From the NCBI GenBank assembly GCA_965223505.1, contig CBDCWP010000021.1:64001-128000 (forward strand): 64,000 nt of DNA, read 5' to 3'. This document shows positions 42,446 through 53,236 of this stretch, in pieces. Positions within the stretch are counted from its first letter, which is position 1, and each line of letters starts with the position of its first letter. A model generated the notes under the pieces. It did not search any database. It had not been told where the DNA came from and saw only the letters and a program-made list of their open reading frames with translations. Source of the DNA: Planctomycetota bacterium. Lineage in GTDB: Bacteria; Planctomycetota; PLA2; JAEUHO01. The position numbers and the translations under genes were made by a program.

Positions 42446-45250
42446 TTGACCGAGGACCCGAGTCAAGACCCCACCGAGTTCAGCATCCTCGCGAATCTGC
42501 AACGGCAGGGCCGCCGTGCGCCGCGCGTCCACCTGCGCAAGTTGGACGCGGACGAAGGCGAGCGCACGGGCGGCATCGGACGCTACGAGGTGCGCGGGGA
42601 GATCGCGCGCGGCGGCGTCGGCATCGTGCTCAAGGGCCGTGACGTCGACCTGGGTCGCGACGTCGCGATGAAGGTGCTGCGCGAAGAGCACGCCGGCAAG
42701 CCGGATCTCGTACAGCGATTCGTCGAAGAAGCGCAGATCGGCGGCCAGCTGCAACACCCCGGCATCGTGCCGATCTACGAGCTCGGCCTGCGCGACGATC
42801 GCCAACCGTACTTCTCGATGAAGCTCGTCAAAGGCGAGACGCTCGCGGCGTTGCTCGGCAAGCGCGAGAGCCCGGCCCACGACGTACGGCGGCTCGTCGG
42901 GATCTTCGAGCAGGTCTGCCAGACCATGGCGTACGCACACTCGCGAGGCGTGATTCACCGCGACCTGAAGCCGTCGAACATCATGGTCGGCGCGTTCGGC
43001 GAGGTGCAGGTCGTCGACTGGGGCTTCGCGAAGGTGTTGCAGCAAGGCGGCATCGCCGATGAGCGCAAGGCGAAGCGCGCCCGCGACGACTCGACCGTCA
43101 TCACGACCGCGCGCACCGCATCACAGGACGAGTCGGAGATCGGCTCGGTGATGGGCACGCCGGCATACATGCCGCCCGAGCAGGCGCTCGGCCGCGTCGA
43201 GGAGCTCGACGAACGCTCCGACGTCTTCGCGCTCGGAGCGATCCTCTGCGAGATCCTGACCGGCAAGCCGGCGTACCACGGCGATGCGAAGAGCTCGCTT
43301 CGCGCCGCGTCGCAAGCGCGACTGGAGGCGGCGGAGGAAGCACTGCGAACGTGCGGTGCCGACGAGGACCTCGTCCGCATCGCGCGCGACGCCTTGCAGC
43401 CGACCCGCCGCAAGCGTCCGGCGAACGCGGGCATCCTGGCGCAGCGCGTCGCGGCGTATACGGCGTCGCTCGAAGAGCGTGCGCACCGCGCAGCGCTCGA
43501 AGCGGCACAAGCACGGGAGGCCGCCGCGCGCGAACGACGCGCGGCCGCCGAGGGACAAGCGGCAGCGGAAGAAGCGCGCGCCGCGGCGGAGCGCGCCGAC
43601 GCCGACGTGGAACAGCAGCAGCGCGCGCGGCGACAGGCGTTTCTCCTCGGTTCCGCCGCCGTCGTCCTCGTCGTGATCGCCGTCGGGACGTTCTTCTGGG
43701 TGCGCAAGGTCGGACGCGACGAACGGCGCGAGACGGCACGTCGGGTCGAAGCGAGCATGCAGGAAGCCCGCGAACATCGCGCCGCGGGGGATCTCGGCGC
43801 CGCCGCGGCCGCGGCGCGCCACGCCGTCGAGCTGTCGTACGGCAAGTCCGTGGCGCGGGTGTTGGCGGACACGGGCGCGCAGCCGGGGCACGACGTCCGG
43901 CGCCCGCTCTTGCTGCTGCAGGACATCAACGGCGAGCAGGCCGCGAACGTCGCGGAATCCGAGCGCAGGCGCCGCAACGACGAGTTCGTTCGGAGGCTCT
44001 CGGAGATCCGGCTGAGCCGAACCGACGTGATGGCCGACATCGACACCGAAGAGGTCTACGGCGACGCGTTCCGCGAGTTCGGTGTCGACGTGGCGACCCT
44101 TCCGGTCGCGGAGACCGCCGACTACCTGCGCAAGAACGCGCCGGAGATCATGAGCGACGTGGCCGGCTACCTCGACGACTGGGCGCTCGACCTGCATTCC
44201 GACCGGGGCCTCGATGGGAAGAACGAGAAGGGCGAGCTGGTGGCGCGGCTGTTCGACGTCGCCACAGCGATCGATCCCGATCCCTGGCGGCGCAAGCTGC
44301 GCGCCGCGATCGTCGCCGATGACAAGGCGACGCTGAAGGCGCTGGCGTCGGAGAGCGACGTGGAGGCGCTCACGCCGAAGTCCATGGTGCTCCTCGGCGT
44401 GGCGCTGGGGTTCTCGACGATCATGGAGGACGCCGATGCGGGCGAAGCGGTGACCGGGTTCCTGCGCCGCGCGGTCCTCGTCCACCCGGACGACCTGTGG
44501 CTGCGGTTGGCCATGGTCGCGACGTCCATGTTCGCCATCATCGGGCAGGTCGGCGACGAGGACTTCGAGGCGAAGCAGAACGCAGCGGCGCGCGAAGGTG
44601 TGCGCCACCTCACGGCGGCGGCCGCGCTACGACCCGGCAGCGCCGCCATCTTGGGATTCCGGGCGATGCTGCGCATGCACCTGAAGGACTACGAGAGCGC
44701 GGCCGCCGACTTCGAGGATGCGATGCCGCTTCTGGAAGGCGAGGAACGGGCGGCGATCGCCGCCGCGTGGGTCAACATGCTCTGGCTCCAAAAGGAGTAC
44801 GAGCGAGCCTTGAAGGCGGCGGAGACCTCGCTCACGGCCAACCCGGAGAGCGCGGTGCTGCGCAGCCAGGTGGCCGACATGCTCATGCGCGGTCCGGTGC
44901 GCGACGTGAAACGCGCTCTGACGTTGGCCGTCGAGGCGCGGGATCTCTTCCCGGAACAACACGCGTCGTACGACTGGATCGTCGCGAAGGCCCAGTACGA
45001 GAACGGCCTCTACCGAGACGTCCTCGCGACGTGCGGGCCCTTGATCACCGAAGACGGCGAGCGGCAGGCATTCGAGACGCATGCAGTGATTCTCTCGGGA
45101 CTCGCACACGCGGCGTTGAACGAGACGGACAAGGCACAGGCGTTCTATGACGAGGCCGCGGCCGTCATCCAAGGCCGGCCCGTGTTGGAAGACATCGCTC
45201 CGTACTGGGTGAAGCTGAAAGCGCTCTTCGAGGAGTCCGGCGACAAGTAG
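42446..45250 (+). CDS. Ser/Thr protein kinase with TM helix and TPR repeats (paralogue)
   Basis: Probable TTG start 1 nt after the upstream stop. [22 protein letters not shown] and [10 protein letters not shown]. Confidence 0.9.
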
Positions 45251-49540: not shown

Positions 49541-49751
49541 GGGGGCGCTTGGGCAGCCACAAGGGCAGCCCCTACGGGGAATCGTCACGTGCACGTGAAC
49601 GTGCACGACACCCCGGACCGCGACGCGGTGAACGCGGATACGGATGTAGGGGCGACCCTCGTGGTCGCCCAATTAAACGTCTCTTGGCGTCCCGGGTTGG
49701 GCAGCCACAAGGGCTGCCCCTACACGCGTTCAATGCATGGGCTGCCCCTAC
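49537..49751. repeat. Cluster of GTAG-family REP elements (BIME/REPIN-like)
   Basis: 25-nt units of the form GTAGGGGC(GA/AG)CCCT(T/C)GTGG(TC/CT)GCCC at 49646-49670 (+) and 49699-49723 (-), a variant at 49551-49575 (-), a half unit at 49739-49751 (-) and a GTAGGGGG remnant at 49537. Confidence 0.8.
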
Positions 49752-52045
49752 CGGGACATGTGCAACAACATGAGCGCGCTGGCGGTGCCGAAGTTCTTTC
49801 CGGCGCCGTCCCAGTCCAACCACGTTCCGTCCACCTCGACGACCTGCAACACGTCCTTCCGCAGCTGCTTCATGATCTGCTTGCGTTCCGATTGCGGCAG
49901 CAGCTGCGCCGCGCGCGCCGCGTGGTAGTACGCGAAGAAGTAGAAGTACGCCGAGACGCCGCGGGGCGCAGTCCAGCTCCCCGTCACCTTCGCGACGGTG
50001 CGAAGGTCCGCGCGGTACTGCATGAACGTGTCGAGTGCCGTGCGCACGTCTTCGATCTTCGTCGCCTGCAGCAAGAAGAGCGCGTGCTCGCAACCCGGCG
50101 CCCGCCCGATCGACGACTCGAGCTTGTTGAAGTTCCGCGGCTCGGGATAGGTGTAGGTGAACACGCCGGGCGCGTCGCGCATCTTCATCAGCACGTCCTT
50201 GCCCTTCTCGAGCACCTTGTCCTCGACGACCAGTCCGAGCTTCTTGGCGCGAACCAACGGGATCAGTGACGGCGCGGTGTTCATGCTGTGCACGCGTCCC
50301 TTGTCGGTCTCCGGCCAGCCGCCGAATCCGCCCTTCCAGCGCTTTGCGAAGGCGGCGTTGTAGGACCAGGCCCCGTTCTCGACCTGTCCTCCGACGTGGA
50401 ACGCCACGGCCTTCTGCGCTTCGTGCTTGAAGGACTCGTCCTTCTCGAAGCGGTCGAGAAAGAGGTCGAGCGCGTAGGCGGTTCCGAACGAATCCGCGTT
50501 GGCCACATCTCCTTGCATCCAGTGCTTCAACCAGTCGATCGCCTTCTGCACGGCTGCCGCGGCGCGCGTCTTCTGTTCGCCCTTCAGGGTGTCGGCGCGG
50601 ATGTCGAGCGCGCGCGCGACGAGCGCGGTGACCGGCGGCACCCACTGCATGTGGCGTGCGCCGAGCAGCCACGAACCGTTCGGCTGCTGCTGAGCCAGCA
50701 GGTAGTCGATCGCGTGCTTTTCGAGCTCCTTGACCTTGCCCTCGGCGAACGGAAGCTCGGTCGAGGTGCCCTTGCGGGTGTACTTCGGCTTCTCGAGAAC
50801 CTCGTACATCGCCATGCGCTCGGGCCAGGCGTGCCACGCGCGGACCTTGAGCTGATACGGACTGTCCTTCGGGAGCTTGTTCCACGATTCGACGGCGCCG
50901 TTTCGGTCCGTGGCCTTGTGCTTGCGCGCGCCTTCGATGTAGTCGGCGGGCGGCGGCACGAACTTCGGCTTCTTGCCGATCTTGACCTTCGCCTTCGCGA
51001 GCGCGCCCAGGAGGAACTCGTGGACGAGCTCCGGGTCGAACGTGCCGATCCCCTCGATGCTGTCGACGGGTTTCCCGTCGTCGCCGGTCACGAGCAACGC
51101 AAACGGCTTCACCTCCTTGGCCGAGCTCCCGAGCGGCGCCAGCGGGTCGGGGCCGCGCAGGAACTTCGCCGTCCATGCGTTGCCTCCGTAGTGTGCGCGC
51201 GTCGGGACGAAGTGCGCGCGGACGAGATCGCGGACGTTGGGATCGGCGAGCACCGTCGCGAGGAAGATCTCCTCGACGTCGCTCTTCCCGTTGTCGCCGT
51301 ACGCGCAACGAACGAAGCAGAGCACCGGCTTCTTCTCCGCCTTCGCCTTGGCCATGCCCTGCGCGGGCGTTCCCGCCCACTCGACGAGCTTCATGAACTC
51401 GGGGAGGACGGTCGGCTGCGGCGGCCCGGACATCGGTTGGGGCGCGACGAACTTCAGCGGCTTCTCGGCCTTGATCACCCACCCATGGAACGTCGCGGCT
51501 TGCGCCGCGGCGTCGCGTACGACGTTCGTGACGTCGACGCGGATCTCCGAGATGCCCGGGGCGATCTCGAACGTGACCTCGGGCTCCGGCGCGATCTTCG
51601 GCTGCACGTTCCACGTCGTCTTGTGTTCTTCCCACGGTTCCTGGATCGGATAGATCCCGGCCGCGAGGTTCTCCGTCAGCGGGATGGAGCCCGGCGCCAC
51701 CCGCATGACGAGCTCGGCTGCATGCGCCTTCTCGAGTCCCGTGAGATCGAAGTGCAGGAGCGCTCGATTGCGATCGGTCTGGTCGATCGACATGTTCGTC
51801 ATGCGGCCGAAGTTGCCCTGAGCGAGGTACGAGATCACCATGCCGTCGGCCTTGGCCTTGCGCTCGATCTGCTCGCCGTTCTGACGAACGCAGACGAGCC
51901 TGGGGCCGTCGCCGTGCTCCTTGGTCATGAACTTGACCCACTCGGGGCGCGACGTCGAGCGAGGCTCGGGCTCGTCCTCCTTGCCGCGGGCCGCTCCGGC
52001 CGAGAAACACACCACCAACAACGCCGCTGCGACCACTCGCACCAT
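49748..52045 (-). CDS. Secreted multidomain protein: DNRLRE-like beta domain, thioredoxin-like domain, prenyltransferase/squalene-oxidase-type alpha/alpha barrel
   Basis: Signal peptide, RALLHFDL...PWEEHKTTWN...VDVT...HGW, then W...AKAKAEKKPVL...VLADPNV...HFVP, then AIDYLLAQQQPNGSW, GQVENGAWSY and YFYFFAYYH. Confidence 0.65.
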   Translation of the reverse strand: MVRVVAAALLVVCFSAGAARGKEDEPEPRSTSRPEWVKFMTKEHGDGPRLVCVRQNGEQIERKAKADGMVISYLAQGNFGRMTNMSIDQTDRNRALLHFDLTGLEKAHAAELVMRVAPGSIPLTENLAAGIYPIQEPWEEHKTTWNVQPKIAPEPEVTFEIAPGISEIRVDVTNVVRDAAAQAATFHGWVIKAEKPLKFVAPQPMSGPPQPTVLPEFMKLVEWAGTPAQGMAKAKAEKKPVLCFVRCAYGDNGKSDVEEIFLATVLADPNVRDLVRAHFVPTRAHYGGNAWTAKFLRGPDPLAPLGSSAKEVKPFALLVTGDDGKPVDSIEGIGTFDPELVHEFLLGALAKAKVKIGKKPKFVPPPADYIEGARKHKATDRNGAVESWNKLPKDSPYQLKVRAWHAWPERMAMYEVLEKPKYTRKGTSTELPFAEGKVKELEKHAIDYLLAQQQPNGSWLLGARHMQWVPPVTALVARALDIRADTLKGEQKTRAAAAVQKAIDWLKHWMQGDVANADSFGTAYALDLFLDRFEKDESFKHEAQKAVAFHVGGQVENGAWSYNAAFAKRWKGGFGGWPETDKGRVHSMNTAPSLIPLVRAKKLGLVVEDKVLEKGKDVLMKMRDAPGVFTYTYPEPRNFNKLESSIGRAPGCEHALFLLQATKIEDVRTALDTFMQYRADLRTVAKVTGSWTAPRGVSAYFYFFAYYHAARAAQLLPQSERKQIMKQLRKDVLQVVEVDGTWLDWDGAGKNFGTASALMLLHMSR

Positions 52046-52144: not shown

Positions 52145-53140
52145 CTACTCGCCGTCGGTCTCTTCCTCGAACGGCTCGTGACCGGCAGTGGTAAACGCGT
52201 TGCCGATCGCGGCGAAGTCGACGACGTTTTTGCGCCCGACGACCGCGATCGCGTCGTTGTCGAGGTCGGGGTGGACGGCCAGCACGCCCTTCATGGGCAT
52301 TGGAAGACGGAACAGGTTCAGCGCCGTCGCCCCCTTGGGCAGGTTGTGGAACTCGAACTTGTGGAGGACGAAGCCGCTCTCGTCCCAGGCGGCCTTGCCG
52401 AGGGTCTTCGGATGCAACAGCATGGCCGAGTGGAACGTCCGGTCCTTTGCGGTCGTCCCCACCGGTACGGGATCGACGAGCTCGGCGCCTTCCCAGCGGG
52501 TCAACGGAGCGAACGAACCCGGACGCGTCCGGAACTCGAGACGTTCGACACCCGCCTTGCGGGGCACGACGGAGACCTTGATCTCCCCGGCGAAAGAGAC
52601 CTTCGCACCTTCCTCGATCTCCTTTTTCAGCTTCGAGATCTGTTCCGGCGTGCCCTCGTACACGTAGCGCGTCGTCGCGTCCGCCGTCTTGGCGGCCTCG
52701 ATCGCCTTGGCAAGGTCCTTCGGATCGAGCGCGCCGTCGAGCGCCTTCTCGAGGCTGATGCTCGTGACGCGATTGCCGTCGCCGTCCATGACGAAGAGCG
52801 CCGGGCGCGACGTGTCCATCGGCTTGAGCAACAGATAGCCCTCGGGCACCTTGACCATGACGCGCACGAATCCGTCCGCCGCTTTGATGACGGGTTCGGT
52901 GTTCAGTACGTCTCCGAGCCGACCGCTCGAAAAATCAAGGCTGCTTCATCAGGTCGCGCCGCCGGACATGCCGACGAGCACGCGGCGCTTGGTCTCCTTG
53001 GCCTTGGCGGCCGCGTAGACCAGCGACGTGTAGCCCTCGTAGTTCCAGGTGAGCTTGGGTGTCTCCTTGGGCGCCTCTTCGGCGGGCGCGGGCACCGCGC
53101 AGACGGCGAGGCCGAAGACGAGGATGAGTACGGTGCGCAT
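52145..53140 (-). CDS. Candidate secreted thioredoxin-fold selenoprotein with two adjacent Sec (U64-U65), 331 aa by UGA recoding
   Basis: Track ORFs 52949-53140 and 52145-52867 share one frame, and the only interruptions are TGA TGA at 52951-52946. The joined read is TW...AAAKAKETKRRVLVGMSGGAT-U-U-SSLD...DVLNTEPVIKAADGFVRVMV. A SECIS-like hairpin follows. Confidence 0.7.
52911..52933 (-). promoter_or_regulatory. Bacterial SECIS-like stem-loop
   Basis: mRNA UUUUCGAGC-GGUCG-GCUCGGAGA forms a 9-bp stem (2 G-U pairs). The loop begins GGUC and lies 21 nt after the second UGA and 24 nt after the first. Confidence 0.65.
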
Positions 53141-53162
53141 GCGATCAGGCTAGCAGGGTCCG

Positions 53163-53236
53163 GTAGGGGCAGCCCTTGTGGCTGCCCAAGGACAGACGAA
53201 CATCCCTGGTCGGGCGACCCCAAGGGTCGCCCCTAC
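53163..53236. repeat. Inverted GTAG-family REP doublet
   Basis: GTAGGGGCAGCCCTTGTGGCTGCCC at 53163-53187 (+) and GTAGGGGCGACCCTTGGGGTCGCCC at 53212-53236 (-), separated by a 24-nt spacer. Confidence 0.85.

Follow-up and report, generated by a model that had tools for sequence, protein, structure and literature searches.

Adjacent UGA codons and a single in-frame hairpin in a probable family of exported selenoproteins of Planctomycetota

A gene interrupted by two adjacent UGA codons

We analysed a stretch of 64,000 nucleotides from a Planctomycetota bacterium (NCBI GenBank assembly GCA_965223505.1, contig CBDCWP010000021.1, positions 64,001 to 128,000; hereafter the window, in which positions are counted unless another contig is named). 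On its minus strand, at 52145–53140, lies a coding sequence of 331 codons in which two consecutive UGA codons stand in frame and are followed, still within the coding sequence, by a hairpin (52911–52933) resembling a bacterial selenocysteine insertion sequence (SECIS). The frame runs from the ATG at 53140 to the TAG at 52145–52147, and its sole interruption is the TGATGA at 52946–52951, with TGA1 (52949–52951) and TGA2 (52946–52948) forming codons 64 and 65 of 331. An earlier reading made from the letters of the window, here called the sequence-only reading, had proposed that both codons encode selenocysteine (Sec, U) in one exported thioredoxin-like protein. The minus-strand letters that it quoted (...GGC GCG ACC TGA TGA AGC AGC CTT GAT TTT TCG AGC GGT CGG CTC GGA GAC...) and the frame open to the TAG at 52145 matched exactly on re-reading. 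The stretch with its TGATGA was also reproduced with 0 differences in contigs assembled independently from four public runs, which come from two samples of one study and are possibly the source of this assembly.

In the gene-caller view, the locus holds a 63-aa open reading frame (ORF) at 52949–53140 and a 240-aa ORF starting at GTG 52867. The public protein collection contains only a 237-aa version of the downstream ORF, all public gene calls examined split the UGA-UGA genes, and a word-indexed protein search returned nothing beyond the window's own downstream ORF call. The genome has a G+C content of 67.4% and open frames are abundant in the ORF list of the window. Because of this base composition, an open frame and a hairpin by themselves constitute weak evidence, and the case rests on comparison with relatives. 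Judged from the translation, the ORFs and the homologues aligned across the site, the apparent small gene with a double stop and the second gene behind it almost certainly form a single gene, which encodes an exported, thioredoxin-like protein.

Genomes were searched in six frames, reading through stops. The gene was matched in 6 of 60 related genomes at 33–44% identity, and two TGA codons were found in all six best matches. TGATGA fell in the same alignment column with protein conservation on either side (...RLLVGL[SA]G[SG]x[TS]-UU-x[SF]xxFE[SG]GPLS...VRVPEAYLLL...RPGLLVLDADGRRV...). Within the order, which in the genome collection used is the whole class (the same 40 genomes), the gene was present in 7 of 40 genomes. 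In a sample of the phylum, 29 of 401 genomes matched at E≤1e-5. Twenty-five of these 29 held 2–3 in-frame TGA codons, with adjacent TGATGA at the aligned site in 25/25. Of the four matches without TGA, one is a copy truncated where its contig ends, two are ordinary Trx7 proteins with CxxC, and one is a protein without Cys. TGATGA was further present in 7/7 loci from public genome contigs and in 16/16 metagenome loci covering the site, a 17th locus beginning past it. Planctomycetota genomes and metagenomes yielded 43 distinct 105-nt segments with TGATGA, at protein identities down to ~25–30%; this set was chosen by its in-frame UU pattern, and the unbiased counts are those given before it, which come from the hit lists of the searches. 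Protein-level conservation in all homologues extends over the 27 codons that separate TGATGA from GTG 52867 (F-E-S/G-G-P-L-S...).

Two architectures were found. In the first, to which the window's gene belongs, a signal peptide and a thioredoxin-like domain are followed by ~200 further residues; the second is shorter and has a PDZ domain preceding the thioredoxin-like domain (GAET-UU-xSTRFES...RRPHAY). PDZ-type UU genes form tandem pairs, ~1.5 kb apart, in two genomes (L059; L061/L077; G329:C1, G258:C36), with a TGATGA and a hairpin of its own in each paralogue. Downstream sequence was free of pseudogene-like decay save in one internally deleted copy (L008/L073; G029:C46, ~43504–43905), which has lost ~210 internal residues relative to its close relative L040 and reads GRFG in place of GLSG. 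This copy, the sole one with a hairpin loop of GUU instead of GGU, is probably undergoing decay.

When 1.84 billion representative sequences were searched exhaustively with phmmer, 72 hits were obtained, among them the window's own fragment. Three repetitive proteins (P0030, P0044, P0060) were set aside as spurious after their sequences were read. Eight hits are N-terminal pieces of 58–73 residues, seven of which stop exactly one residue before the first TGA; in P0063, the piece is one residue longer and ends ...AAC, which suggests a Cys-Sec form. Most of the remaining hits are downstream pieces starting at query residues 68–118, and the two kinds of piece together form the pattern typical of a selenoprotein gene that has been wrongly split. 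The site itself is spanned by seven real hits, of which five have Cys-Cys at the UU column, two in the window's long architecture (P0016, GGEL-CC-VSE; P0025, GGDG-CC-GDV) and three in the PDZ architecture (P0054, GSDT-CC-PFTRFE; P0058, GSET-CC-AFSRFE; P0069, GSYN-CC-SYI), while the other two show His-Leu in one case and a four-residue deletion in the other. No CC form was found among the 401 phylum genomes sampled. Homologues conserved on both sides of the site thus carry either TGATGA (43 distinct DNA sequences) or Cys-Cys (five database proteins), and by alignment the classical Sec/Cys pairing holds at both positions.

A SECIS-like hairpin within the coding sequence

The hairpin claimed by the sequence-only reading, 9 bp with loop GGUCG at 21/24 nt from the two UGAs, is present as described. 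Its 5' arm (UUUUCGAGC, 52925–52933) and 3' arm (GCUCGGAGA, 52911–52919) form seven Watson-Crick and two G-U pairs around the loop GGUCG (52920–52924). The loop starts 21 nt past TGA2 and 24 nt past TGA1, and an unpaired 12-nt spacer (52934–52945) lies between TGA2 and the stem. Alone, the hairpin folds at -11.2 kcal/mol, and 43/43 hairpins of the collected set fold at -8.4 to -15.0 kcal/mol. The bSECIS model, as given in the Fig. 2 legend of PMC13188914, specifies a loop of 3–9 nt, a stem of 4–16 bp, a UGA-to-loop distance of 16–37 nt and a minimum free energy (MFE) of at most -7.5 kcal/mol, with a G within the first two loop positions (pattern N1-G-[G/U]-N-N2). The element agrees with this model on every count for both UGAs (5-nt loop, 9-bp stem, G, 21/24 nt, MFE), so the fit to bacterial SECIS rules first suggested from the sequence extends to the published model, and it is joined by the covariation and resampling results below.

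RNAalifold on 24 distinct sequences predicted the hairpin helix only, and no other. Helix cells were paired in 89.4% of cases versus 81.6 ± 1.2% with the 3' letters shuffled (0/500 shuffles reach the observed value), and pairing was 30–52% when the partner was slid by 1–3 columns. The covariation score was 0.248 versus 0.141 in the shuffles (again 0/500), and two count-based covariation measures were unexceptional, being reached by 62/500 and 79/500 shuffles. Double changes occurred in three pairs; pair 51-69, for example, reads CG in 13 sequences, GC in 6, UG in 2 and UA in 1.

Synonymous resampling, in which the protein sequences were kept and codons were drawn anew according to the usage of these genes (2000 draws, 42 sequences), gave 4.88 ± 0.24 pairs formed (maximum 5.88) versus 8.02 of 9 in the observed sequences. 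The loop codon among the 42 is GGT in 31, CGT in 9, AGT in 1 and GTT in 1; elsewhere in these genes, Gly is encoded by GGT in 8% of cases and Arg by CGT in 7%. Regardless of the amino acid, GU stands at loop positions 2-3 in 41/42 sequences versus 3.2 expected, the lone exception being the shortened G029 copy, and in L067 the closing pair is altered on both sides (AGT...ACT). The earlier suggestion that rare T-ending codons in the arm (CTT GAT TTT) reflect selection on RNA structure stands in part: TTT lies in the conserved stem, but CTT and GAT sit 5' of the conserved helix, and the telling rare codon is the GGT of the loop. Pairing, covariation and codon choice together strongly support the view that the hairpin is a SECIS under RNA-level selection.

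Machinery, fold and weighing of explanations

The genome contains selA (436.7 bits), selB (335.7 bits, with the wing domain found) and selD (338.1 bits), as well as one tRNA-SeC(UCA) among 66 tRNAs, the sole tRNA with anticodon UCA; a tRNA scan of the window itself found none. In the order, selA is present in 38/40 genomes. The selA and selD genes are adjacent (G000:C8:37088-39232; L001, L096), and selD has one in-frame TGA, which marks it as the selenoprotein form of SelD. Many homologous genes end on TGA at the aligned C-terminus, so UGA is not reassigned, as had been argued from the use of TGA as a normal stop in the window.

At least eight other Thioredoxin_7-like places in the genome have an in-frame TGA (C11:7320-7583, C7:128944-129189, C34:130121-130381, C21:278203-278469, C30:72395-72598, C30:73306-73539, C31:81010-81192 and C21:458008-459171). 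Their motifs are UATC, UVGC, USTC, UPHC, UGPC, UGRC, a lone T-U-P and U-E-P-U (a member of NF041199), and behind each lies a hairpin whose loop, of GGU(C) type, is 19–28 nt past the UGA. The exported selenoprotein set of this genome is unusually rich, and by its loop and spacing the hairpin of the UU gene is of the genome's house type. Two NF041199 (Trx7/PDZ) members are present, at 391.9 and 320.2 bits. The 391.9-bit member is the U-E-P-U gene, in which the UGAs are nine bases apart and a single hairpin lies past the second; one SECIS serving two UGAs seems already to occur here. A weak relative in a sister genus (L019, G008:C5:265020-265376), with a single in-frame TGA and the motif YLPG-U-GPC, is a separate UxxC Trx7-like selenoprotein.

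The predicted protein opens with a putative Sec-type signal peptide (residues 1–20, MRTVLILVFGLAVCAVPAPA, then EE; 53081–53140), recognised from the translation and from low predicted local distance difference test (pLDDT) values over residues 1–20, with the cleavage site placed by eye; a similar hydrophobic leader opens all aligned homologues. AlphaFold2, with Cys substituted for Sec and 46 aligned sequences, gave a model with pLDDT 90.8 and a predicted TM-score (pTM) of 0.87. In this model, a thioredoxin fold spans residues ~30–151 (52688–53053), with the motifs VPE(A/G)Y and R-P-G, and Sec64-Sec65 (52946–52951) would stand directly after its first beta strand (residues 53–59) and ahead of the next helices. 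By analogy, the conserved R-P-G before strand 114–118 is the probable cis-Pro loop position. Foldseek matched the N-terminal part to DsbD-gamma, DsbH, a Thioredox_DsbH protein, AGR2 and thioredoxins, with probability 1.00 for DsbD-gamma, DsbH, thioredoxins and Thioredox_DsbH. The Pfam match to Thioredoxin_7 (PF13899; residues 43–117) reached 12.4 bits (E 0.18), below the 27-bit cut-off, and relatives scored 14–18 bits. The thioredoxin-like fold behind a signal peptide that the sequence-only reading had seen is thus borne out by AlphaFold2 and Foldseek, with Pfam below threshold. In a weak BLASTP match (E 0.049) to a paralogue encoded elsewhere in the genome, which has a UxxC motif, U64 aligned with the Sec of that protein and U65 with the x next to it. 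The window protein reads U-U-S-S and its relatives U-U-x-[FSTLV]; neither Cys nor Sec stands at +3, and the pair matches none of CxxC, UxxC and CxxU.

Behind the thioredoxin fold, model secondary structure and Foldseek point to a middle beta-alpha-beta-beta (ferredoxin-like) domain (residues ~155–206, 52523–52678) and a C-terminal HMA-like beta-alpha-beta-beta-alpha domain (residues ~256–320, 52181–52375). Foldseek hits of these C-terminal two thirds were the tandem HMA domains of CopA (2rml, E 7.7e-4), ATP7B domains 5-6 (2ew9, E 5.6e-3) and RRM/UHM folds. The HMA-like domains are without the metal-binding Cys pair, having the loop LPKGAT here and PKGG in relatives where GMxCxxC would stand. 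Pfam HMA did not match the UU protein, similarity to the HMA domain of a copper ATPase in a profile search was non-significant (E 1.2), and a profile search of solved structures gave nothing significant. The Cys-less HMA-like C-terminus proposed from the sequence therefore has support at the level of fold (model, Foldseek) but not from Pfam. Many relatives end ...AGC..., this copy ...AGH....

Comparison among relatives shows a single gene with a selected UGA pair and hairpin, with Cys-Cys forms and in a genome with Sec machinery, as far as sequence can establish it. On the strength of this conservation, the Cys-Cys homologues, the hairpin and the sel genes, we favour the reading proposed at the outset and give it a probability of roughly 0.88: one exported 331-residue protein in which both UGAs would be read as Sec by SelB and tRNA-Sec by means of one SECIS. 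Taken jointly with the gene model and with equal confidence, the modelled product would consist of a signal peptide, a thioredoxin fold with Sec-Sec at the first CxxC Cys position, and two Cys-less HMA-like domains. In the mechanism that we propose, SelB with Sec-tRNA would bind the hairpin and deliver Sec at UGA1. After a translocation of one codon (3 nt), the hairpin would still be intact because 12 unpaired bases remain, and a second SelB-Sec-tRNA complex could re-use it for UGA2, which is feasible since 24 and 21 nt both lie within the bacterial SECIS range. The spacer in E. coli fdhF is 11 nt, to which the 12 nt here are close. Once the product is exported, the two selenols would act together in the periplasm. 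Because UU is placed in a thioredoxin fold, we favour, by analogy with the Cys-Sec ring of mammalian thioredoxin reductase, a reversible vicinal diselenide redox centre over a soft-metal site, and this function carries about half of the functional odds. The relatives likely constitute a Planctomycetota family of exported vicinal Sec-Sec proteins in which a single in-frame SECIS would recruit SelB twice.

An annotation as two genes, a 63-residue secreted peptide with a tandem stop and a ~240-residue cytoplasmic protein from GTG 52867, would match the gene-caller ORFs and the 237-aa database call; tandem stops exist, and open frames arise easily at 67% G+C. It is nevertheless very improbable, since the stretch of 27 codons from TGATGA to GTG 52867 shows conservation at the protein level, the called starts of downstream pieces vary among relatives (query residues 68–118), five homologues are continuous with Cys-Cys at the site, and the AlphaFold model unites both halves in one thioredoxin fold; the downstream piece would moreover be without a signal peptide. 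The same six bases in 43 distinct sequences down to ~25–30% identity, with both flanks conserved, likewise render it hardly conceivable that the locus is a pseudogene, a Cys-Cys thioredoxin-like gene killed by nonsense mutations. There are no other stops or frameshifts, and two TGC-to-TGA changes fixed identically across the phylum are not what decay produces; what speaks for decay is the G029 copy, with its large internal deletion and its uniquely altered loop. Ribosome hopping or frameshifting over the six bases was considered and rejected, as the reading frame does not change across them and the codons on either side vary between relatives, with no matched take-off/landing pair. The UGAs might instead be read through without (both) being Sec, by near-cognate Trp, Cys or Arg, or with one Sec and a selenium-dependent translational brake. 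The inserted residue is not deducible from sequence alone, and double Sec insertion should be inefficient, so that a regulatory by-product is plausible. We regard such read-through as unlikely, given that the only tRNA with a UCA anticodon is tRNA-Sec, that the hairpin is of SelB type and selected at the RNA level, and that homologues carry Cys, the usual Sec counterpart, at both columns; UGA also ends many homologous genes, which makes general read-through unlikely.

A different function is conceivable under the same gene model, with Sec-Sec forming a soft-metal or metalloid site (Hg, As, Cu, Cd, Se) and the HMA-like domains serving for hand-over. Two HMA-like domains do follow the thioredoxin fold, and vicinal CC/CU pairs mark mercury and organometallic proteins, among them SaoL, SaoC, HgcA and SaoX (10.1101/2022.07.06.499078; PMC13188914 Table 1). 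Yet these HMA-like domains are without the metal-binding Cys pair, UU occupies the canonical redox position of the thioredoxin fold beside a conserved Pro loop, and no metal-resistance genes are conserved alongside, and we hold a metal site to be possible but doubtful.

Several observations weigh against the Sec-Sec reading itself. The distribution is patchy, with the gene in 7/40 genomes of the order and 25/401 of the phylum sample. In its 76-nt context the hairpin has z = +0.87, 161/200 shuffles folding at least as well. Rfam at a permissive E-value over 52700–53200 returned no SECIS family, only chance-level miRNA and hammerhead matches, a miss that is expected as bacterial SECIS elements are short and diverse. 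Pfam and NCBIfam gave no match above threshold, and the AlphaFold2 model describes a Cys-substituted protein. To our knowledge, two SelB-dependent insertions in a row from a single hairpin are not known biochemically from bacteria, and full-length protein might be produced in small amounts. An all-against-all comparison of the ORFs of 11 loci found no conserved neighbour, and context therefore does not constrain function; a Ser/Thr kinase gene lies downstream of the UU gene in two of these loci only.

In the window, the neighbours of the UU gene encode a CBM96-containing exported protein and a 3-hydroxyacyl-CoA dehydrogenase. The former, downstream at 49748–52045 on the minus strand, has 765 residues; it includes a carbohydrate-binding module, CBM96 (E 3.7e-14), its long C-terminal portion matches nothing in Pfam, and its gene does not adjoin the UU gene in other loci. 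Just upstream of the ATG lies a short palindromic intergenic element (53157–53192, core GTAGGGGCAGCCCTTGTGGCTGCC), at which contig depth was very high in the public runs. A 24-mer of this element has 94 copies in the genome, both strands counted, and the element looks like a REP-like intergenic repeat.

Comparison with known selenoproteins

Lists of prokaryotic selenoproteins (2022, PMC9312934 Table 1; 2026, PMC13188914 Table 1, 119 families) contain the motifs UxxC, CxxU, UxxU, UxxxxU, CxU and CU, and UU appears in neither Table 1. According to PMC13188914, only a small subset of prokaryotic families has 2–3 Sec. The literature searched contained no prokaryotic case of adjacent Sec codons, with the BSepDB database and the supplements of prediction papers outside the search, and adjacent Sec is not mentioned in the main texts of BSepDB and deep-Sep, their supplements being outside it as well; the database and supplements could include such genes. 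The sequence-only reading knew of no characterised bacterial example, which within this search holds for prokaryotes, but Sec-Sec as such has a natural precedent, the only one met in print, in an algal protein disulfide isomerase (PDI), PDI_e with GUGUU, which its authors present as the first selenoprotein in which two Sec stand side by side (Jiang et al., BMC Genomics 2020, PMC7539508). Like the UU protein, algal PDI_e is a thioredoxin-fold protein with two consecutive Sec from adjacent UGAs; unlike it, PDI_e is eukaryotic, has a three-Sec motif, belongs to another family and uses a SECIS in the 3' untranslated region (UTR) that acts at a distance (PMC7539508). With the SECIS so placed, neighbouring UGAs raise no difficulty of spacing there, whereas the UU gene has its SECIS inside the coding sequence at a fixed distance past the codons.

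The evidence supports the UU proteins as a new bacterial selenoprotein family whose motif is, from sequence, uncatalogued for prokaryotes. If this is true, they would represent the first case in prokaryotes of a Sec-Sec family that has Cys-Cys counterparts. Sec insertion in bacteria relies on a hairpin that follows the UGA at a defined spacing, and adjacent Sec codons on one hairpin for this reason test the limits of the mechanism; the gene would offer a natural system for studying the one-codon flexibility of SelB-SECIS geometry and the reloading of SelB on one SECIS. It would also provide a natural template for vicinal diselenides in proteins and new active-site chemistry in the thioredoxin fold, where a vicinal diselenide, as against Cys-Cys or U-x-x-C, might serve as an extremely low-potential redox switch or for periplasmic soft-metal capture. 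The arrangement is not a curiosity of one assembly, since it is conserved in dozens of genomes, has Cys-Cys relatives and has a hairpin held by rare codons. UU genes will escape annotation pipelines and Sec/Cys-pair searches built around a single UGA.

Further parallels are found among bacterial selenoproteins with a vicinal Cys-Sec pair (SaoL, SaoC, HgcA, KCU-star, MbdU), which share a vicinal pair including Sec, database genes typically cut at the UGA and Cys-Cys relatives (10.1101/2022.07.06.499078; PMC13188914). As these sources describe them, they differ in having one Sec, unrelated folds (MerB-like, corrinoid, ferredoxin) and a cytoplasmic or organometallic context. NF041199, listed in PMC13188914 Table 1 as Trx7/PDZ with CxxU and 1 Sec, resembles the UU family as an exported Thioredoxin_7-like selenoprotein of Planctomycetota, and the UU family also has a subfamily with PDZ. 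The window protein, however, has no match to it, and PDZ-bearing UU and CC forms score 22.8 and 25.6 bits in the PDZ part only, where the cut-off is 300. PDZ and Trx stand in reversed order, with PDZ first in the UU proteins, the motif is UU rather than CxxU/UxxU, and the window protein has HMA-like domains instead of PDZ.

By fold, the nearest systems are DsbD-gamma and DsbH (1vrs, 2fwf, 1uc7, 2ju5), the best N-terminal matches with target-normalised TM-scores of 0.48–0.70, which are likewise exported and have their active site past strand 1. They carry CxxC, whereas the UU protein has Ser, Phe or Thr at the second Cys position and an adjacent partner, and identity is 16–20%. Chemically, mammalian thioredoxin reductase, whose C-terminal Gly-Cys-Sec-Gly forms a redox-active eight-membered ring from a vicinal Cys-Sec pair, and SelL, whose UxxU shows that two Sec can form a catalytic diselenide, are related cases. 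Both differ from the UU proteins in that they involve a selenenylsulfide or non-adjacent Sec, are eukaryotic, use a 3' UTR SECIS and place their Sec at unrelated fold positions.

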